Source of the DNA: Cyanobacteria bacterium P01_H01_bin.74
GTDB taxonomy: Bacteria > Cyanobacteriota > Vampirovibrionia > Vampirovibrionales > Vampirovibrionaceae
NCBI GenBank assembly: GCA_038745945.1
Contig: JBCDLA010000004.1
Location: 1-54,528 of the forward strand
Reading direction: 5' to 3'
Length of the DNA stretch: 54,528 nucleotides
The notes below the pieces were generated by a model. That model did no database searches and was not told the origin of the DNA. It saw only the letters and a list, made by a program, of their open reading frames with translations. Position 1 is the first letter of the stretch. Each line of letters opens with the position of its first letter. Positions 3,782 through 13,592 of this stretch are shown here, piece after piece. Both the position numbers and the translations under genes were made by a program.

Positions 3782-4246
3782 TTACAAATTTTTAACAGAA
3801 GCAGTCTGGTGTTTAATGGTATCGTCAATTTCTGGATTGTTGTTGTTCTGTTCTTTGAGAGCAATACTTATCGCCTCTTCCCAGGTGGCTTTTAATTGCC
3901 TGAGATGAAACAAAACTTCATCAATCAAGGCAATATCTTTTTTGATGTTGGCCTGAACCAGTTGGTAATTTAAATACTCATACAATTTTATCAAGTTTTC
4001 AGCCATTTCACCACCAACTTCCATATCCAGGCTATTCATAAATTCCTGGATGATGTGCTGAGCTTTCAACAAGTGGTTATGAAATTTTTCCAGATCATTG
4101 GTTTCATGAGCTTTTTTTGCAATCAGCAAAAAACGAATTGCCCCCTCGTAAAGCATAATGAGAAGCTCTGTGGGGGTTGCTGTTTCAATTTGATTTTTCT
4201 TGTAATGATCGGCTTGTTTTGCGTAAGGGTGATTAAACGCACTCAT
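3782..4246 (-). CDS. fliS: Flagellar export chaperone FliS (ATG at 4246 preferred to GTG at 4285)
   Basis: YKKNQIETATPTELLIMLYEGAIRFL...KAQHIIQEFMNSLDMEVGGEMAENLIKLYEY...LKATWEE. Confidence 0.95.
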   Translation of the reverse strand: MSAFNHPYAKQADHYKKNQIETATPTELLIMLYEGAIRFLLIAKKAHETNDLEKFHNHLLKAQHIIQEFMNSLDMEVGGEMAENLIKLYEYLNYQLVQANIKKDIALIDEVLFHLRQLKATWEEAISIALKEQNNNNPEIDDTIKHQTASVKNL

Positions 4247-4497
4247 GCAAGAGAAATCCTTCTGGATAGTAAACCGGGATGACACTATTAATCTATCGTC
4301 AAGCCAAAGAATTTCTCAAATTTAGATTCATTACCTCCTCTGTTTGGCGGAGGCAATGAGTGAAACAGCGCACAAAACAAGGAATAGTCGTTTTTATGCA
4401 TATGGATGGGTCTGTTAGTTCAACTTAGGGCATTCAATAGCGAAGTTCTGTCCACGTAATCCGAAACAGTAAGACTTGTTGGAGGAGGAAAGCAATC

Positions 4498-4701
4498 ATG
4501 GGTTATTCCTACACGGGTAAAGGCGATGCCAGTTTATTTTCCGGTTTAAATACACTGGACTCAGGGGTTACAAGCACATTGTCATTAAGCAACCGAAAAG
4601 AAACTCTCGCCGTTATGGGCACAGAATCGTTTTGGGATGGTGTTAATGACCTTAGAATGGGCAATGTTGTTTCAGCAAATACAGCCTTTGTTGGCCTGTA
4701 G
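4498..4701 (+). CDS. Small protein, probable antitoxin of the downstream RelE-like toxin
   Basis: Strong GGAGGAGG RBS; ends 48 nt before the RelE-like gene; KETLAVMG...DGVNDLRMGNVVS resembles the toxin-binding C-terminus of Phd/YefM/RelB-type antitoxins. Confidence 0.55.
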   Translation: MGYSYTGKGDASLFSGLNTLDSGVTSTLSLSNRKETLAVMGTESFWDGVNDLRMGNVVSANTAFVGL

Positions 4702-4749
4702 CTGAAAAAAGAATAAAAACTTTAAGTTCAATCCTATAGGATTCATTCT

Positions 4750-5103
4750 ATGGTTTCATCATTGCAAGAACGCACACCAGATTGTATTTCTTATGACACT
4801 CAGCCTATCACATGGCAGGTTTTCTTAACCAATACAGCTGACAAAGCCCAGCGAAAAATGGACAAACCCCTTCGGGTTAAAATTAAAGATGCTGTATTAT
4901 CTTTGTCTCACAACCCAGAATTGCAAGGCGAGCAGTTAAGTCAGCCGTTGACCAATGTGTATTCGCGGCATATTAAATACAAAGGCAAAGAGTTTCGGGT
5001 CGCTTATCAAATTGTCCAGGAAACCAACAGTGTTATTATTCTGTTGATTGGTCCGCATGAAAATTTTTATAAAAAGTTAAAAAACTTTATTTACGCCATT
5101 TAA
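4750..5103 (+). CDS. RelE/ParE-family type II toxin
   Basis: WQVFLTNTADKAQRKMD...NPELQGEQLSQPLTNVYSRHI...EFRVAYQI...ILLIGPHENFYKKLK. Confidence 0.85.
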   Translation: MVSSLQERTPDCISYDTQPITWQVFLTNTADKAQRKMDKPLRVKIKDAVLSLSHNPELQGEQLSQPLTNVYSRHIKYKGKEFRVAYQIVQETNSVIILLIGPHENFYKKLKNFIYAI

Positions 5104-5147
5104 TAAAATACTTTTAAGGCTCTTTCCATTGGTAAGCATTGATCTTA

Positions 5148-6809
5148 TTAATGCTTAAATTCACGAATCCCTGTTGTTATCATTGCAATCTTATTCTCAT
5201 TAGCCAGACTTATCACAGCGCCATCTTTAATGCTGCCACCCGGCTGAACAATTACTCCTACACGGGCTTGGGCTGCAGCATAAACATTATCTTCATGAGG
5301 TAAAAAGCCATCTGAGGCCAGAACTGCGCCTTTTGATTGATCACAGGCCAGTTTTAATGCGTTTTCCAGTGCACCAATACGAGAGGTATTGCCTGCCCCA
5401 ATGCCAACTGTTTTTTTGTTTTTGGCCAATACAATGGCATTGGATTTACAATGTTTTACAACCTTCCAGGCAAATGCAATGTCTTCCATCTGATCGGGGT
5501 TTGGTTTTTCTTGTGTCGCAATGGCAAACTTTTTTTCTTGCTCTCTACGCTTCTCAATATCCACAGTTTGAACCAGCATCAAGGTTTCCGAAACATGCTT
5601 AAACTCAAGTGGAACTTGACTGCTGGGTTTGGGCAGCTCTCGTGTGACCAGGCGGATATTTTTTTTGCTGGAAAGCAAGTCAAACGCGTCTTCCTCAAAA
5701 CCAGGGGCAATAATTACTTCTAAAAAGAGACTGTGCATTATTTTGGCAGCCGCTTTTGACACAATATCATTAAAGGCAACCACGCCACCAAAAGCACTGA
5801 CAGGATCAGTATCCAACGCACGCTGAAAAGCATCGTCAACAGAGGTTTCAGAAAGGGCCACACCACACGGGTTGTTATGCTTTACTATGGCACAGGCATA
5901 ACTTTCCGAGAACTCAACGACAATCTGCCAGGCTGCTTGCATATCTAAAATATTATTAAACGACAATGCCTTGCCATGCATGCACTTGTAATCAGGCAAC
6001 TGGGTTGCTACCCCGTAAAGCGCTGCTTTTTGGTGTGGGTTTTCCCCGTAGCGCAAGTCTTCAATTTTAGCCAGAGGCAGTCCCATTAAATCGGGCAATC
6101 CCATGTTTTGTTTTAACGGACCGTCAGTTGATTTTGTTTGTTGAAGAAAAGCCGTGCTTTCATCAGCGAATGCTTGTGCAATTAAGCCGTCGTAATAGGC
6201 AGTCAATGAAAATGCTGAGTAAGCCAACCGTTTTTTAAATGCAAGCGAAGGGGTTCCCTCGGTGTTTGAGAGTTCTTCGAGAAAAGAGCTGTACTGGCGG
6301 CAGTTACTAAGCACAGAAACAGCCGGGTAATTTTTGGCGGCAGCGCGAAGTAATGCTGATCCACCAATGTCAATGAAATGAAGCAGGTGATCGAAATTTT
6401 CTGAGGTGCATGCATTTTTTTCTTTCAGCGCATCCCGCTCAGCTTCAAAGGGATACAAGTTGGCAACGACAATATCAATGGTAAACGGCAGGTTTAAATC
6501 GTTCTTTTCTCTGACGATATTTTCTCGATCGGTTGTTTCAGCCAGAATTCCTGCAAAAATATGCGGATGCAAGCTTTTAACCCGGCCACCAAGCAATTCC
6601 TCAAAGCCGGTAATTTCAGCACTTTCAATCGAGTCTATTTGATGCTCAGCCAGGTACTTTCGTGTTCCTCCGGTTGAAATAATGACGGTATTGTACTGCT
6701 CAACCAAAACTCGGGCAAAATCTGCCAGACCCGTTTTATCAAACACACTGATAAAAGCAATGCTCTGATTGACTAAATTTTCCAGTATCGGCTGTTGTAA
6801 CGGTGACAT
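5148..6809 (-). CDS. purH: Bifunctional AICAR transformylase/IMP cyclohydrolase
   Basis: AFISVFDKTG, STGGT, GRVKSLHP, IDIGG, LRYGENPHQKA, KHNNPCG, KSNAI, ASDGF, QPGGSIKD. Confidence 0.98.
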   Translation of the reverse strand: MSPLQQPILENLVNQSIAFISVFDKTGLADFARVLVEQYNTVIISTGGTRKYLAEHQIDSIESAEITGFEELLGGRVKSLHPHIFAGILAETTDRENIVREKNDLNLPFTIDIVVANLYPFEAERDALKEKNACTSENFDHLLHFIDIGGSALLRAAAKNYPAVSVLSNCRQYSSFLEELSNTEGTPSLAFKKRLAYSAFSLTAYYDGLIAQAFADESTAFLQQTKSTDGPLKQNMGLPDLMGLPLAKIEDLRYGENPHQKAALYGVATQLPDYKCMHGKALSFNNILDMQAAWQIVVEFSESYACAIVKHNNPCGVALSETSVDDAFQRALDTDPVSAFGGVVAFNDIVSKAAAKIMHSLFLEVIIAPGFEEDAFDLLSSKKNIRLVTRELPKPSSQVPLEFKHVSETLMLVQTVDIEKRREQEKKFAIATQEKPNPDQMEDIAFAWKVVKHCKSNAIVLAKNKKTVGIGAGNTSRIGALENALKLACDQSKGAVLASDGFLPHEDNVYAAAQARVGVIVQPGGSIKDGAVISLANENKIAMITTGIREFKH

Positions 6810-7053
6810 GGCTAACTTTCTATCAATAAGTGGTAACAGGGTGATACGTTTGGCAAAAAATAGATTCTTAATATAAATTTTTCTTCATATAAATTCTTAA
6901 TGATTCATACTCAAGTTGAAGCATCTTGAAACTTGACCAATAAGTTTTATATAAAGATTAAAAGAAAAATAGAATTTTTGTAAGAAGTGTTTATCCGGCC
7001 AACAAAAAAAATCAGGAAGGCTTTTTGAGTTTTAAAAAGCCGTTGCGGTTCTA

Positions 7054-7935
7054 CTATTGCAGAAGAACAAATGGAGATGGCTGTCTCTGAGAATAATAGG
7101 AGGGTGATAAAACATAACTCACCGAAGCAGGAGATTGAGCTGCACGGAATGGTAAGGATGCATTTACAACAGAGTAATTGCGGAACCCGTTTGCTTGAAA
7201 AGGTGTTAGGTTTTGTGTTTTGCCGTCTGACAAGCTACTATCAGACTCCTGAAACGAGCGTGCAAAAGCACGTTTTCTAGCCTCAACATTTCTGCGGGTT
7301 AATGCAAAATTAACCATGTTTATCCCAAAGCCCAATACCGCAACTGATAATATTAAACTGGCCATTGAAGCAGTATTGCGTTTTTCAATCAGTTTGTCCA
7401 AAAACTTTTCGGTTGTTTGGTATGCTTTTGACTCTGGTTTTACCCCTGCTTCCTTAAGTTGCATAAGCGTCTGCGTTTTATGGTCTTCAACCTGCTGATT
7501 TGAGGGCAATCCATATTTAGCCAGTGGATTTATAGCATAATTCAGTTTCGCCAGCCATCCTTTTTCGGGTGCTTTGTTTAAATCCAGCAGGCTTTGCTTA
7601 ATTGCTTTGGGCTGACGGGCAATGGTCAAGCGTTGGACAATCGGGGTTGTAAACACCCAGAAAAGCATCCCAATGGGATCACGAATTAAAACTTCTCTCA
7701 CTTCATTCCAGCTTTTAGACTCGCTGTCTCTTCTTCGGTTATTGGCAGCCGTTAAACGCCATCCAATAATACCTGGATAAATGAGGTGTAACTGATTGGC
7801 TCCCGTAACGGCAAACGGGCTGGGTAAACTTAAATGATTGGTCAACCGGACCAGATTGCCCGACTTCTTAAAATTTAATCCAAAATGTGGGGCCACTGTC
7901 TTATTAGATGCAACTGCAGAAGCTATCTGACGCAT
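7054..7935 (-). CDS. Hypothetical membrane-associated protein (type B), paralog of 11739-12995
   Basis: 293 aa; hydrophobic segments; shares Y-x-G...R..A..R...E...L.RD with 11739-12995; GGAGG RBS; 1 nt after the upstream stop. Confidence 0.8.
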   Translation of the reverse strand: MRQIASAVASNKTVAPHFGLNFKKSGNLVRLTNHLSLPSPFAVTGANQLHLIYPGIIGWRLTAANNRRRDSESKSWNEVREVLIRDPIGMLFWVFTTPIVQRLTIARQPKAIKQSLLDLNKAPEKGWLAKLNYAINPLAKYGLPSNQQVEDHKTQTLMQLKEAGVKPESKAYQTTEKFLDKLIEKRNTASMASLILSVAVLGFGINMVNFALTRRNVEARKRAFARSFQESDSSLSDGKTQNLTPFQANGFRNYSVVNASLPFRAAQSPASVSYVLSPSYYSQRQPSPFVLLQ

Positions 7936-7936
7936 A

Positions 7937-9565
7937 CTAAGAAACCCTCCAAGAGGTAGCCGATTGTGCTTGGTAAGTAGCAGGCGGATACAACAAAGCT
8001 GGCGTATAACCGTTGGCTCTCAGAACAGAGGGTCTTGCTGGTAAAAGTGGCATTGATTTTAATGGTTGCTGCAAGAATGCACCAGCAGCACCAGGACTGG
8101 GATAGCAATAAAGAGGCGGCTGTGCGGTGAAAGCTGGCGGGCTATAAAGGGCCTGAACAGACTTCACTTGTTCATCAGGACTTGTTTGTGGGATATTATT
8201 GCACTGTTCTGGTGGGGCATGCTTTTTTGTATTGTGCTTTGCTTTCGTGGGTGTTGGAATCCCTTCGCCTGGGAAAAATATTTTTCCGCCATACTTATGA
8301 CGGGTATACCAATTGTTAAAGAATACCAGTGAACCTGATGTGGCAAGTGTAATTAAAATAGGCAACCATGTGTAAAGCCCTTTGGCCTTTTTTGCGGCAG
8401 CCACAAGCCCCAGCGATTTTTTGATCAGTAAACCTTGATCTTCACCGGAGTAGAGCTTGTCTGCAATGGCCGTCTTCCACTGTTTGGAATTAAGCTTGTG
8501 ATGACTAACAGCATAAGCAGTCCGGTCGACAAACTGAGTGAGAAAATGATGCAATTCCGTTAAAATACTTATACGCCCCTTGCTTTTACTGGTTCCAGCA
8601 TCAGTAATTAAATTGACAGTACTGGTCATCCCACTTTGATGGGCCAGATAATCTAGCTGGTTTGAGAGATTCTGAATAACAGAGGGTTGTTTTGCTTTTG
8701 ATTGCAGTTGCGATAAGCTGAGTTGAAGGCGTCGGACAATAAATTCTTCTGACTCTGGATCAACGGGTTGACCGGTGGTTTTTTGAAAAGCTTCTTGAAC
8801 CTTACAATCTAAGCTATACGCATTGTCGTGGTATATTTTCGCCAACCTGTTGCGGGCACTGCGCGAGAATTTACCCCAGCCAGCATTTTTTAACGTCTGA
8901 TGTACCGCATCAAAGTGCTTGGATGCCATTGTCTCATCAGAATGAGTGAGGCCTTGGCGCAAAATTTCAGCGGCATTGTCCTCAAGAGGTTTATCTACTT
9001 GCAAAAAAGTTTGCTTCAATAAAGCACGCTGCTCTTCGGGAAAGTCTTTTAGAACCTGAATACTGTGTAAGCGAGTATTTAAACTGCTTTGGATGTCTGT
9101 TGACTGCATTCCAGAAAGAACAGTGTCAATAAACTCTTTTCTGGCCGCAGCGGGGCTATTACTTTGAGCAAGAATATTTTTGTAAACGGCTGAAAAGACA
9201 TCCAGGTTACTGGCCTCAACAAAAGCTTGGGCTGGGATCCCTTTAGGATTTAACTTGTTGACAGAGCGCCCTGCAAGTTTCATCAAGCCACTACTGGCTA
9301 TTCCCATAACAAACATATTGGCCAAAGTACCAAAAACTTCTCTCAGAAATGTTTCCCGCGCATCATCAGGCCCTCGCATCACAGCAGCTTCGGCTGTCCT
9401 CGGAAAAACCATGGCCACCAAATCCAGAATGACGAGTGTCATTGGCCCATCATCAACCAGTGCAGCAGCAAGACTTTTTCCTTGAAACCGGGGGGAGCGT
9501 TGTTGACCTGAAACTTTATTTTCAGGTCTAACAAACCGGGCATTATGAGAAAAAGAGACTTGCAT
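7937..9565 (-). CDS. Hypothetical membrane-associated protein (type A), paralog of 10171-11736
   Basis: 542 aa; DLVAMVFPR...ETFLREV; late TM helix then FPG; Pro/Gln/Tyr-rich tail. Confidence 0.85.
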   Translation of the reverse strand: MQVSFSHNARFVRPENKVSGQQRSPRFQGKSLAAALVDDGPMTLVILDLVAMVFPRTAEAAVMRGPDDARETFLREVFGTLANMFVMGIASSGLMKLAGRSVNKLNPKGIPAQAFVEASNLDVFSAVYKNILAQSNSPAAARKEFIDTVLSGMQSTDIQSSLNTRLHSIQVLKDFPEEQRALLKQTFLQVDKPLEDNAAEILRQGLTHSDETMASKHFDAVHQTLKNAGWGKFSRSARNRLAKIYHDNAYSLDCKVQEAFQKTTGQPVDPESEEFIVRRLQLSLSQLQSKAKQPSVIQNLSNQLDYLAHQSGMTSTVNLITDAGTSKSKGRISILTELHHFLTQFVDRTAYAVSHHKLNSKQWKTAIADKLYSGEDQGLLIKKSLGLVAAAKKAKGLYTWLPILITLATSGSLVFFNNWYTRHKYGGKIFFPGEGIPTPTKAKHNTKKHAPPEQCNNIPQTSPDEQVKSVQALYSPPAFTAQPPLYCYPSPGAAGAFLQQPLKSMPLLPARPSVLRANGYTPALLYPPATYQAQSATSWRVS

Positions 9566-10170
9566 TTATACGTAAAAAATTCTTTTTAAAAACTTTCAAT
9601 GTTATTGAATAACTGGTTAGTACCAGCTTGTGATAAAGTTGAAAACTGCGAAAATGAAAGCTTTTATTCTAAAAGTAATTTTATTATTTTAAAGAGAGTG
9701 CATCACTGAAATACAGCTTTTTTAGCTCAAGCTTTCTTTTTACAAGTAGAGCAAAGGCAAGGCTTTTTCTATTTAAGGCTAAACAGTTTTAAATAGCAAG
9801 TTTTTTGTTTTCAACTGTCTTTTACTTTACAAAATCTTATTGTTTAAAACAAAAAACAGGGCTTATTATTGCATTCTAAATAGGGAATGTCTTCTTATTA
9901 AAAAACAATCAAGAAATTATTTTCAACTGAATTTGCTATTGTAATTCTACTGCCACTGTATTTTAAAACCAATAAATCCCACAAGTGGCCTTATTGTCTC
10001 AGCTTTATAACAAACAATTGTTACAAGCTTTACGTATTTTAAACAATAAGATATACTCGTAGACCCGAAGAATATTCGTTTCAATACGTTACATTGACGC
10101 ACAAAAAGAGATTGACGTTGGTTTAAATGTTTGAACGTTTTATCTGCCCTCAACCAACACTGATAGCTTA

Positions 10171-11736
10171 ATGTCATCCATTTCTCAACCGAATTTACTG
10201 CGTTTTAATCCTATTGCTACGCAATATGGGAAATCATATACGCCTTCAAAAAAACAATCCCTTCAGTTTTCGGGTACTTTAAACCCTTTAAATAAAAAAG
10301 GGGCATTTGAATTTAATAAAGTGCTTATTGGCTTTTTTAAAGGTGTCAGCGAATCTTTTTTGCTTGGATTTTTAGCGCAAGATGTCGTTTCTATGTGGTT
10401 TCCAAGAATTTTCACCTCACTTGCAACCGGCCGTGAAAAACCAGATTCTTCTAAAAAGGACCCTAAATCTAGTAACCAAAACGTTTTTCAAAGAGCTTGG
10501 CAAAAAGTTTCTAAATTTTTTAGCAGTTTTTCTGAATTTGTTAGGAGTTTAAATTGGGAAAATTTTGCCGAAGAGACACGTCGAGAGGTTTGCACAGGAC
10601 CAGGACTTCTATTTATTCCAAGTGTACTTTATTTATTAAACAGAAATTTCGATAATCCATCAGTAGAGTTATCAAATAAAAGTTTAAAGCAACTGGGCGA
10701 AGGATTTTCCGCACACTTAGCCAGCCTGCCGGATAGCCAAATGTTAAACAAAAAAGCCTATGAAACTGAAGTTTCAAGGTATTTAAATGCTATTTTCTGC
10801 GATCCAGGCTTGGACACAGAAACAAAAAAACAGCTGGGTCATATTACCAATCAGTACAGCAAACTGCTTCTAAAACCCAAACAAAATAATGGTCTAAACG
10901 GTTTATTCCGTGATTTCATTGGTTTTTTCCAAAGGCAAGAGAAATTACCCCTTGAAGATGAACTCAATCAGTCACTGAAAGAACTGCTATCAGGCTTTAA
11001 TCAAAAACACAGGGCTGAGCCATATAAATCCTTAAGTGGCGATTTCCAGTTTAGTGATGAAGCCCCTGTTGTAAACCAAAACAAAACCTGGGTTAATTAC
11101 AGGGCGCGTATCACTGATAGCAAACCAGAATTAAAAGATGTTTCAGAGTTGGGTCAAGAAATTCATCGGATGCGGGGGTATTTTGGCAGTGTTTGGAACA
11201 ACGTAAAAAGTGACGTTCACGGCGCCCGTTTGATAGATTTAAAAGAGCAAGCTGCCTATGCTGCAAAAAAAATTACCGTTAAAAAAAGCTTATTAACATT
11301 TTTGGCATGTGCAATGACAACCACATTTTTGACTCGAATGGCATTTTGGGCACAGAAAGGCAACAGTTATCCAGGCACGCGACTTCTTCGTGAAAGCAAA
11401 GCACAAAATAACAAAACAGGAAGTCCAAAGCCACAAACTGAGCAACTGTTAAAATCAGTGGCAACCCCTGATGATTTGAAAATGCTGCAAAAGCCTTTAC
11501 AACCCATAAAAATACCGCAGGTCTCAACGGCGATTGCACCAAAAGGATTGACACCTACACCCGTCAAACCGGTTCCTGCATTACCTGTAATAACAGGTAA
11601 CCTAAGCCCATTCAGCTCATATCCTCAAGCCTATGCTTACCCTGGTATTTCTACTGTGACTCAAGCCAGTGTTCAATCCCCTTTTAATATTCAAGCAATT
11701 CCAAATTTTGAAACAAAAACAAGGGGGGTGAAATAA
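10171..11736 (+). CDS. Hypothetical membrane-associated protein (type A')
   Basis: 521 aa; DVVSMWFPR...EETRREV; late hydrophobic helix then YPG; Pro-rich tail. Confidence 0.85.
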   Translation: MSSISQPNLLRFNPIATQYGKSYTPSKKQSLQFSGTLNPLNKKGAFEFNKVLIGFFKGVSESFLLGFLAQDVVSMWFPRIFTSLATGREKPDSSKKDPKSSNQNVFQRAWQKVSKFFSSFSEFVRSLNWENFAEETRREVCTGPGLLFIPSVLYLLNRNFDNPSVELSNKSLKQLGEGFSAHLASLPDSQMLNKKAYETEVSRYLNAIFCDPGLDTETKKQLGHITNQYSKLLLKPKQNNGLNGLFRDFIGFFQRQEKLPLEDELNQSLKELLSGFNQKHRAEPYKSLSGDFQFSDEAPVVNQNKTWVNYRARITDSKPELKDVSELGQEIHRMRGYFGSVWNNVKSDVHGARLIDLKEQAAYAAKKITVKKSLLTFLACAMTTTFLTRMAFWAQKGNSYPGTRLLRESKAQNNKTGSPKPQTEQLLKSVATPDDLKMLQKPLQPIKIPQVSTAIAPKGLTPTPVKPVPALPVITGNLSPFSSYPQAYAYPGISTVTQASVQSPFNIQAIPNFETKTRGVK

Positions 11737-11738
11737 CA

Positions 11739-12995
11739 ATGGCCATTATCCCCGTAAATCCTGCTAATTCAAGTACTGCATTGATTCCAAAACCGCCAGC
11801 AAGCCCAAATCCACTGGGATATAGACCGATTGATCGTTTAAATGGCATTCCCGATTCTTTAGAAGTGTCTGCAAAGGCCAGTCAAAACCCAGTCGTCAAA
11901 AAAACGAAAAACTTTCTGGCTCATTGGGTCACTGATTTTGACTGGCACAAATTTGTGACTACTGCAAAGCCAGGTGGGCGTTTTAATTATACAATACCCA
12001 CACCATCGGGTGGCGCTTGGCTATTGTTTCTGTATTTGGGAACTGTCCCAGCGCGAGTAATCAGGGCTTATCAGCGCGGTAAAGAGAATGGGGGAGACTA
12101 CCGTGAAATTGGTGACTGCTTGCGGCGCGATATGACTGCTATCACCCTGATACTATTTGCATTAAAGCCGATTATGACTGCTGTGGGCCGAAAAGTTGAA
12201 AAAGCCACAGGAATTCCATTAATTGATCCGAAAACAAAAGAGCTTTACAATTACAGTCAGCTCGAAAAATTTAGAGTTCAAACCCCAGAGGTGCTTTCAG
12301 GTCTCATTCAAGAAGGTAAAGGCGCAGCCTTACTGAAAGCCTTGAAAACATATTCAGTTGACCTATTACCGGACGCTTTAAAGGAACCGTTTAACGTATA
12401 TAAAAGAACGGTTGAAAAAGCTGTTGAACATCAAAGCAAAAACCCTGAAGATAAAATTACTATTAAAGCTATGGCTTTGGAAGCGTTTAACCACCTTGAA
12501 AAAGCAGAAGCGCAACGTGAAGGATTTTTGAAAACAGTCACAAAAGAAAGTCTTCCTGTTGTTAAAAAACAAGCTAAAATTATGGCCGAAGATTTTAAAG
12601 GGGTACTGGCTCGTACATCACAAAGGCATCGACTGCCCAGTGATATTTTTGGGTTTGCTTTCACGGTTTTAATCACAGGACTGCTTCCCGTTGTCTTTAA
12701 TGCGGAATGGAACAAATTCCAATTTGCCCGTGAATCGGCAAAAGCCAAGCAGAAAGAAAAATTACCCCCTTCAGAAGCACTGCAAATGCAGGCGAATGTT
12801 TCACAACAACAAAGTCCTCCTGCAGCCCAGCAAACACCCTCATTTTTACCGGTTACAATTCAACCTGCCCCTTTACCCACTATAAAATCATGGCAGGCCT
12901 ATCCAATAACACAACAGACCAATCCGTTTAAAATGCCACCGTCATCAGCTCAATTAGCTTACAGTCCGTATCAATCTTACCAGTTGATTGGCTAA
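11739..12995 (+). CDS. Hypothetical membrane-associated protein (type B')
   Basis: 418 aa; FLYLGTVPARVIRAYQR...YREIGDCLRRD; late TM helix; P/Q/S/Y tail; 2 nt after the upstream stop. Confidence 0.85.
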   Translation: MAIIPVNPANSSTALIPKPPASPNPLGYRPIDRLNGIPDSLEVSAKASQNPVVKKTKNFLAHWVTDFDWHKFVTTAKPGGRFNYTIPTPSGGAWLLFLYLGTVPARVIRAYQRGKENGGDYREIGDCLRRDMTAITLILFALKPIMTAVGRKVEKATGIPLIDPKTKELYNYSQLEKFRVQTPEVLSGLIQEGKGAALLKALKTYSVDLLPDALKEPFNVYKRTVEKAVEHQSKNPEDKITIKAMALEAFNHLEKAEAQREGFLKTVTKESLPVVKKQAKIMAEDFKGVLARTSQRHRLPSDIFGFAFTVLITGLLPVVFNAEWNKFQFARESAKAKQKEKLPPSEALQMQANVSQQQSPPAAQQTPSFLPVTIQPAPLPTIKSWQAYPITQQTNPFKMPPSSAQLAYSPYQSYQLIG

Positions 12996-13157
12996 AGCTT
13001 TGCGTGTTACCGCATCTTATTGCAATTTATTCACTGAACCACACTTTTCAATAGGATATGTTTGCAGTATTCTTTAAATATTTATCACTTCTTAAGCAAA
13101 CCGCTTAGCTGTTGATTACCTGCTCAAAGCCAAAATTACTTCGGAGGAAATTTCTAC

Positions 13158-13592
13158 GTGGCAAAGAAAGAAATGGCCAAAATCAAACTTGAATTGACTG
13201 CCGGGAAAGCCAATCCTGCACCACCCATTGGTCCTGCACTCGGTCAGCATGGAGTTAACATTATGGGCTTTTGCAAAGAATACAATGCAAAAACAGCCGA
13301 CATGCAAGGCATTATTCCAGTAGAAATAACAGTGTATGAAGATCGGTCATTCACATTTATATTAAAAACCCCACCAACTGCAAAACTAATCTTAAAAGAA
13401 ACTGGCCTGCAAAAAGGTTCGAGCAAGCCCAATAGTGAAAAAAAAGGGGTCTTAACAGAACCAATGATTCGAAAAATAGCAGAAATAAAGTTACCTGATC
13501 TTGGGTTACCAGGTGGTGAGGCTCGGATTGAATCAGCTATGCAGATGGTTCGCGGTACTGCCCGGAGTATGGGGGTAACCTGCGAAAACTAA
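13158..13592 (+). CDS. rplK: 50S ribosomal protein L11
   Basis: [46 protein letters not shown]; GTG start after GGAGG. Confidence 0.99.

Follow-up and report, generated by a model that had tools for sequence, protein, structure and literature searches.

Two divergent gene pairs of Vampirovibrionia encode a candidate lineage-specific heteromeric membrane complex

What is the function of two divergent gene pairs that match no known protein family and lie among housekeeping genes in Vampirovibrionia? The pairs occupy positions 7,054–12,995 of a 54,528-nt stretch (the window) of contig JBCDLA010000004.1, assembly GCA_038745945.1, from Cyanobacteria bacterium P01_H01_bin.74. An earlier note on this DNA, made from the sequence alone, described two operons diverging from a 605-bp AT-rich spacer, each with gene junctions of 1–2 nt, and all four open reading frames (ORFs) were found as described. 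On the reverse strand, A (7937–9565; 542 amino acids, aa) is followed by B (7054–7935; 293 aa), which begins 1 nt past the stop of A. On the forward strand, A' (10171–11736; 521 aa) is followed by B' (11739–12995; 418 aa), which begins 2 nt past A'. A and A' are A-type subunits, A being the divergent duplicate. We interpret the four products as a resident heteromeric membrane complex with a housekeeping role, made of two paralogous pairs, and give this reading an even chance.

Every motif quoted in the earlier note was present in the translations of the four ORFs. A and A' share D-[LV]-V-[AS]-M-x-FPR (DLVAMVFPR in A, DVVSMWFPR in A'), E-x3-REV (ETFLREV and EETRREV) and a short motif past the last hydrophobic helix (FFPG and SYPG). 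The motifs shared by B and B' are IYPGIIGWRLTAANNR in B and LYLGTVPARVIRAYQR in B', WNEVREVLIRD and YREIGDCLRRD, and the late-helix motif SVAVLGFGINMVN / TVLITGLLPVVFN. The common layout that the note had proposed was borne out family-wide by alignments of all four families. It consists of a short hydrophobic helix (H1), a charged loop with [ED]-x3-R-[ED] directly before a hydrophobic helix H2, a helical insert, a charge-free helix H3 and a Pro-rich tail. The tails are of low complexity throughout the families of all four proteins, with 14–18% Pro and abundant Ala, Ser, Gln and Gly.

In A', the hydrophobic H1 (residues ~59–84; 10345–10422, forward strand) has two invariant residues, the Asp D71 midway along the helix and the Arg R79 at its end. 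A loop containing G87, N128, E134, R138 and E139 leads to H2 (~143–158), a helical insert that includes a small beta-sheet (163–350), H3 (~373–394), Y400/R404 and a 107-aa Pro-rich tail. A has H1 at ~40–55 (invariant D48, P55 and R56), E71, R75 and E76 in the loop, H2 at ~77–99, H3 at ~397–416 and, after its FFPG, a 105-aa Pro-rich tail. In B', H1 (~91–105) is followed by R106, R113, D120, E123, D126, R130 and D131; this segment from R106 to D131 (12054–12131, forward strand) is the B-side half of a conserved charge network. H2 (~132–150), a four-helix-bundle insert (~176–292), H3 (~303–321, with G314, P317 and N321) and a Pro/Gln-rich tail complete the protein. B has H1 at ~48–59, WNEVREVLIRD in its charged loop, H2 at ~87–106, H3 at ~192–212 and a Pro/Ser-rich tail.

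The invariant positions are D71, R79, G87, E134, R138, E139, K372 and Y400 in A' and R106, R113, D126, R130, D131, G314 and N321 in B'. The mid-helix Asp is invariant in 34 A' sequences (D71) and 21 A sequences (D48), and is kept in five of five fused forms described below. Inserts and tails vary freely, and the only near-invariant positions outside the bundle region are N277 of A' and A201 of B'. Since the invariant positions lie in and around the helix bundle while inserts and tails are variable, the bundle is the probable functional centre.

Gene order ties the two protein types together. Among 20 loci around the best A' homologs, the four-gene divergent layout (B and A on one strand, A' and B' on the other) was kept in 15; two of the remaining five were cut by contig ends and three had A'B'-type pairs only. 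A second set of 16 loci from the same order, drawn from weaker or second matches, gave four full layouts, nine loci with A'B' alone, one cut by a contig end, one with an A–B fusion (a 676-aa ORF in genome G188) and one with a 679-aa ORF with a B-type match beside A'B'. In the family that we label f7 (families are numbered f1 to f12), all four loci fetched carried a single ORF of 690–725 aa that matched both A-type and B-type profiles. In the alignment, a low-complexity linker joins H3 of the A-type part to H1 of the B-type part, and no hydrophobic segment is added. The fusion, the 1–2-nt junctions and the invariant adjacency all point to an obligate partnership of A-type with B-type proteins, as the earlier note had supposed. 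One of the three loci with A'B'-type pairs only, from an f3 genome (locus L038, G164:C102:15000-25632), carries two tandem pairs on one strand, at 4140–7132 and 7729–10631, a further local duplication.

The partnership was also reflected in predicted structures. AlphaFold2 models of A' (34 homologs in the alignment) and B' (36 homologs) had a mean predicted local distance difference test score (pLDDT) of 70.6, with a confident core at residues ~70–400, and of 81.9, respectively. Both models are almost all-alpha and run in the same order from H1 through a charged loop and helix to H2, then through the helical insert to a long helix containing H3 and a disordered tail. The insert contains a small sheet in the A' model and forms a four-helix bundle in the B' model. 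Complex modelling covered one pair, A' (40–410) with B' (20–360) at 1:1, and gave an ipSAE of 0.73, compared with 0.00 for the best control. Of solved complexes and mismatched pairs, 58 of 80 and 2 of 110, respectively, reach the mark applied to this score; with alignments of our own, these counts are only approximate. The model has ~270 contacts, with at least 85% agreement between runs and a partner pLDDT of at least 79. In it, H1 and H3 of A' pack against H1, H2 and H3 of B', and insert packs against insert. The confident interface includes residues 70–71 and 78–79 of A' and 106, 113, 120, 123 and 126 of B'. It holds 10 of 17 invariant residues, compared with 179 of the 712 modelled residues (hypergeometric p = 0.003). 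An intimate A'–B' heterodimer is thus supported by the modelling.

Are the two pairs copies of each other? Pairwise BLASTP was not significant (E 0.12 for A/A', 2.7 for B/B'), and a first comparison of thin profiles (3 and 4 sequences) failed, with a probability of 1.1%. A word-index search returned two relatives of A, three of A' and one of B', six-frame genome searches returned many more, and family alignments were built from the fetched loci. With these alignments, hhalign matched B to B' with 98.3% probability (E 2e-14, 199 columns) and A to A' with 83% (E 8e-6, 110 N-terminal columns). The A-types are bridged by subgroup S, ~350-aa proteins from an exhaustive search (A/S 96%, A'/S 99.9%). 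By this profile evidence A and A', as well as B and B', are homologous, as the earlier note had claimed, for A/A' clearly in the N-terminal helix domain only. Within the source genome, the B' profile matched B (E 1.6e-5) and nothing else, and the A' profile matched A' alone.

The note's further idea, that A and B are themselves ancient paralogs, could not be established. Full-length comparisons between A-type and B-type proteins gave probabilities of 2–21%, except for A/B', at 88.5% for a 51-column stretch at the C-terminal helix, a match that may reflect helix composition only. Over the H1–H2 region the values were 31–48%, and the best alignment placed both H1 helices and [ED]-x3-R-[ED] collinear. 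We regard paralogy of the two types as no more than suggested.

Trees of the two types tell the same history. In the B-type tree, the B and B' clades had support values of 100 and 95 in the Shimodaira–Hasegawa-like approximate likelihood ratio test, and the C-terminal halves of the fused f7 proteins joined the B' side with 100. In the A-type tree, support was 98 for the A clade and 96 for the A' clade, and the N-terminal halves of the f7 fusions, together with subgroup S, fell on the A' side with 98. Branching inside the clades follows f1, f2 and f3 in both trees, and in f7 the fused forms do not separate from the unfused ones. Because the A-type tree mirrors the B-type tree, the pair was duplicated jointly, in agreement with the note's view of a duplicated unit. 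Provided that the f7 branch holds the root, the duplication probably took place in the ancestor of Vampirovibrionales. On these trees A–B is the more diverged copy, and both copies are vertically inherited.

The distribution of the family was determined in genome samples, in which not found does not equal absent. A thin A' profile matched 123 of 301 genomes in a sample of the class: 23/24 in f1, 19/19 in f2, 4/5 in f3 and 74/99 in f7, and 0/2 in f4, 1/96 in f5, 1/30 in f6, 0/9 in f8, 0/12 in f9, 0/3 in f10 and 0/1 in f11. With a better profile, a sample of the phylum (401 genomes) gave 164/169 in f7 and 2/2 in f12, with no match in f9 (0/5) or in all other families (0/224). The A clade was present in 34 of 49 genomes of the order (f1 23/24, f3 5/5, f2 5/19). 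With profiles of the fused form and of B', the single genome searched from each of f5, f6, f8 and f9 gave no convincing match. The exhaustive search of 1.84 billion representatives returned 352 clusters at E ≤ 1e-3, and neighbours in the Atlas were hypothetical proteins of Melainabacteria or Cyanobacteriota only. Within the samples searched, the family is restricted to Vampirovibrionia, where it is near-universal in two orders. Its near-absence from f6, f8 and f9 means that the complex is not required throughout the class, provided that no divergent forms were missed.

Named related loci came from Vampirovibrio chlorellavorus, Vampirovibrio sp. and uncultured Vampirovibrionales, which identifies f1 as the Vampirovibrio family. 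The f7 genomes, small and ~99% complete, probably represent the gut Gastranaerophilales, which would be non-predatory. Two weaker sets of relatives were seen. One f4 genome (G001:C31:45762-47500; L070, L072, L073) has a weak adjacent pair of an A-like 482-aa ORF and a B-like part; one match to the latter crosses a TAA, its open frame is 203 aa, and a gene boundary or a disruption is possible. Six genomes of the genus Vampirovibrio carry elsewhere a third, more distant A-like ORF of ~600–660 aa (E 1.6e-17 to 6e-8 with the A profile; for example G126:C5:255475-256212 and G118:C26:189501-189995), which may be another fused or extended paralog.

We propose that A–B and A'–B' are two paralogous heterodimers of a constitutive, vertically inherited and lineage-specific membrane complex of Vampirovibrionia. 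The three hydrophobic helices of each subunit would combine into one shared six-helix bundle, the helical insert of each subunit would pack on that of its partner, and a disordered Pro/Gln-rich tail would extend past H3. Within the bundle, the A side would contribute to a charge network the mid-helix Asp, an Arg and E-x3-R-E, and the B side two Arg and D..E..D...RD, with most network residues at the subunit interface. H3, at 19–22 residues, is essentially charge-free in 23, 20, 38 and 39 members of the four families, and H2 nearly so; we therefore favour true transmembrane helices for both. The natural fusion joins the C-terminus of A to the N-terminus of B and so puts the two on the same side. 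This could be accommodated if each subunit crosses the membrane twice, by H2 and H3, and H1 lies at the interface, or if no helix crosses it fully. A module that serves the cell envelope by conducting ions or protons, or that is coupled to ions, appears the most likely role of the complex, though we put it forward tentatively, and a structural scaffold comes next.

Several observations weigh against this proposal. The best 19-residue windows have positive insertion energies of +1.6 to +5.8 on an approximate hydrophobicity scale, and all flanking segments are net positive, with none of the inside/outside asymmetry of the positive-inside rule. No operon partner or domain fusion indicates a process. 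The complex model and the conservation analysis share the same alignments, and buried cores are conserved in any protein. The family was undetected in several flagellated sister families (1/30, 0/9 and 0/12 in f6, f8 and f9). The idea of ion conduction rests on the position and invariance of the charged residues, and the same pattern would be seen if these residues merely stabilised the dimer. Insertion into the membrane, its topology, the part played by the charge network and a cellular function of any kind are what we infer.

A purely stabilising role of the charges is part of an alternative in which the A–B heterodimers are themselves anchors, a structural scaffold or tether whose inserts and tails reach or recruit envelope or cytoskeletal partners for division, shape or outer-membrane attachment. 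Pro/Gln-rich linkers similar to these tails occur in known divisome proteins, and here all four proteins carry low-complexity Pro-rich tails family-wide. The inserts are generic helical bundles, and a complex that is core and vertically inherited suits such a role. However, conservation is lowest in the inserts and tails, which is unexpected if they bear specific contacts, and none of the relatives' loci contains a conserved neighbour gene that would suggest a partner; we hold the scaffold to be possible but doubtful. The marginal insertion energies and the net positive charge of every soluble segment would also suit a cytoplasmic or peripheral helical-bundle heterodimer. Its hydrophobic helices would then simply make up the protein interior or reach into a single leaflet, as seen in proteins that bind lipids or remodel membranes. 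Weak apolipoprotein rows in the sequence searches and BAR and I-BAR rows in the fold searches point the same way, and the shared side of the A C-terminus and B N-terminus is explained most simply by zero or an even number of crossings. These rows are all insignificant, however, and a charge-free H3 of 19–22 residues with a near-charge-free H2 is typical of transmembrane helices, so that we judge a non-membrane heterodimer quite unlikely.

The earlier note had instead compared the layout with bicomponent alpha-pore-forming toxins or translocator pairs of type III secretion systems (T3SS; YopB/D, IpaB/C and SipB/C type), here taken as secreted and directed against prey or host. Adjacent partner genes, all-alpha proteins with hydrophobic helices and the lack of a known family are compatible with a weapon, and the source organism belongs to the Vampirovibrio family, which, as PMC4451040 describes, includes an algal predator. 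Weak, non-significant rows pointed to toxins as well. ClyA (1qoy) was ranked 47 by Foldseek against the A' model (E 0.77, TM 0.09/0.14). AhlC (6h2d) superposed on the B' model in VIA with a Z of 6.5 and a root-mean-square deviation of 2.8 over 101 residues, a score shared by many unrelated bundles. Bacillus_HBL was matched by one of 36 B' homologs at E 0.014, below the Pfam cut-off, the sole such row among 34 A' and 36 B' homologs. Against this stand the near-universal, vertical inheritance in the order, the fused ortholog in 164 of 169 f7 genomes and the housekeeping neighbourhoods. No toxin or translocator hidden Markov model (HMM) recurred among the 34 A' and 36 B' homologs, and no fold matched at Z 8 or E 1e-3. 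No T3SS translocator family of Pfam was found in the proteins scanned, although no dedicated search for a non-flagellar injectisome was made. Where linkage to injectisome and chaperone genes would be expected of a translocator pair, the neighbours are PurH, ribosomal proteins, the 467-aa TPR protein, glycosyltransferases and CdaA. By eye, none of the four proteins shows a Sec signal peptide, and the basic, charge-rich helix flanks resemble those of resident membrane proteins. A core, vertically inherited and lineage-restricted complex that lies among housekeeping genes and occurs as a fused form in a probably non-predatory order argues for a constitutive role, and a secreted pore or translocator is very improbable.

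The absence of a recognisable family, as stated in the earlier note, held up in all searches. Pfam, NCBIfam, PADLOC and PHROGs gave no family over the cut-off and none that recurred among the window proteins, fused forms, subgroup S and homologs, and no defence or phage family was matched. The best sequence profiles from the Protein Data Bank (PDB) reached E 0.02 (a nucleoporin coiled coil) and 0.012 (a designed repeat, MutS2); these rows were rejected as helical noise. The whole models of A' and B', compared as the note had suggested, revealed no known fold. Foldseek against the PDB gave nothing at E ≤ 1e-3 (best E 0.14 for A', 0.055 for B'), and VIA, with 48,161 representatives, gave a best Z of 6.8 and 7.6, under the tool's noise level for helical models. 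An Atlas lead to MTP18 (PF10558), found in 33% and 11% of the members of neighbouring Melainabacteria clusters with scores of 0.76 and 0.83, served as a lead only. It was not reproduced in a six-frame search, which found nothing at the cluster in the source genome or in five f7/f12 genomes at E ≤ 10, and none of 10 subgroup S proteins matched PF10558 at E ≤ 1. No paper mentioning these genes was found in the literature, and none is mentioned in the accessible part of PMC4451040, whose supplementary tables could hold an annotation. Judged from these searches and the absence of any family model, the family is apparently undescribed.

How does such a complex compare with known systems? The ClyA superfamily (YaxAB/XaxAB, Hbl/Nhe, AhlABC) offers adjacent genes for two related all-alpha proteins with long bundles, hydrophobic helices and, as predicted here, a heteromer, but no HMM or significant fold match connects it with the four-gene family. 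ClyA toxins are patchy and accessory, whereas the genes described here are near-universal, vertically inherited core genes, fused in another order and with no sign of secretion. An invariant Asp within a hydrophobic helix is a hallmark of MotB, ExbD and TolR. The ion-driven inner-membrane stator complexes MotAB, ExbBD and TolQR would be analogous in being heteromeric and encoded by coupled neighbour genes, in their conserved membrane helices with a variable periphery, and in an invariant Asp inside a hydrophobic helix (D71 of A', D48 of A). This is a functional analogy only: the proteins scanned gave no Pfam rows for MotA_ExbB or ExbD/MotB, there is no sequence or fold relation, helix counts differ, and the subunits here are alike in layout and were modelled at 1:1. 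Neither a 5:2 assembly nor a peptidoglycan-binding or TonB/TolA-like partner was seen.

SecD/SecF and LptF/LptG are paralogous, adjacent membrane-protein pairs that are fused in some lineages. They resemble the present pairs in their similar subunits side by side, obligate partnership and lineage-specific fusions, but there is no homology; Pfam has models for these families, whose transmembrane helices are also far more numerous. The insert of B' (~176–292), between H2 and H3, superposes on four-helix-bundle sensor domains that lie between two transmembrane helices (NarX, TorS and the ligand-binding domains of chemoreceptors) with VIA Z values of 6.7–7.1, a range common to any helical bundle, with vinculin, talin and designed proteins scoring equal or higher. 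Unlike in sensor proteins, no kinase, HAMP or signalling domain follows the insert.

Nothing known matched the family, a statement that does not extend to its mechanism, and it may prove to belong to a known membrane family from which it has diverged beyond recognition. The Vampirovibrionia, the closest non-photosynthetic relatives of cyanobacteria, comprise an algal predator and common human and animal gut bacteria, and almost none of them have been cultured. A near-universal, lineage-restricted complex with a heterodimer model and a natural fused form is a testable entry to the cell-envelope biology specific to this group, and the family is a clean phylogenetic marker for Vampirovibrionia. 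The most far-reaching interpretation, which we consider unlikely, would be a new ion-conducting, energy-transducing heterodimeric machine. It would have arisen in the non-photosynthetic sister lineage of cyanobacteria for an envelope function performed elsewhere by unrelated proteins, and would have been duplicated in the predatory Vampirovibrionales and retained as one fused gene in the human and animal gut Gastranaerophilales. Of the earlier note as a whole, the description of the cluster was correct and the evolutionary inference largely so, while its interpretation as a toxin or translocon is unlikely.

A link to the flagellum was considered and rejected. FlhA is present in f4, f6, f8, f9 and f11, of which f6, f8 and f9 are almost without the cluster; f4 has only the weak A-like/B-like pair, and f11 was sampled by one genome. 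Genes of the FlhA type (FHIPEP) were found in nearly all sampled families of Vampirovibrionia except f5 (1/96) and f10 (0/3), and several f6 genomes have two distinct full-length FlhA-type copies on different contigs.

The public protein collection carries A' as a 331-aa product (P0004) whose start lies inside the gene, so that the conserved N-terminal helix domain is missing. Because this call omits the best-conserved domain of the family, we take the 521-aa ORF to be the real gene and the shorter call to be a likely start-site miscall. The spacer between A and A' (9566–10170) has a GC content of 0.28–0.31, compared with 0.36–0.46 for the four genes, and presumably holds the promoters of both operons; in relatives its length varies between about 40 and 730 bp. 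The spacer has promoter-like hexamers on either strand, but their number in the whole scanned region (6800–13200), 18 compared with a mean of 12.7 (s.d. 3.6) in shuffled sequence, was not clearly above chance. A terminator scan of the region gave nothing above chance, and an Rfam scan of the spacer and region gave no match.

In relatives, the flanks encode a TPR protein, heptosyltransferases, CdaA, a decarboxylase, a TrmFO-like GIDA protein and PheT. Most f1 loci (for example L024) share a conserved neighbourhood, in which a 467-aa TPR protein is convergent to B' and is followed by two family-9 glycosyltransferases of the heptosyltransferase type. On the B side, most f1 loci carry CdaA (diadenylate cyclase) and a pyridoxal phosphate-dependent decarboxylase. 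The source genome has PurH and rplK/rplA in place of this neighbourhood. In the window, the four genes are flanked by a ParE-like toxin ORF and PurH on one side and by L11, L1 and an amino-acid-kinase-family (UMP kinase-like) gene on the other. The former ORF (4750–5103, forward strand; 117 aa) matches the ParE-like toxin family of type II toxin–antitoxin systems (PF15781, E 2.4e-16).

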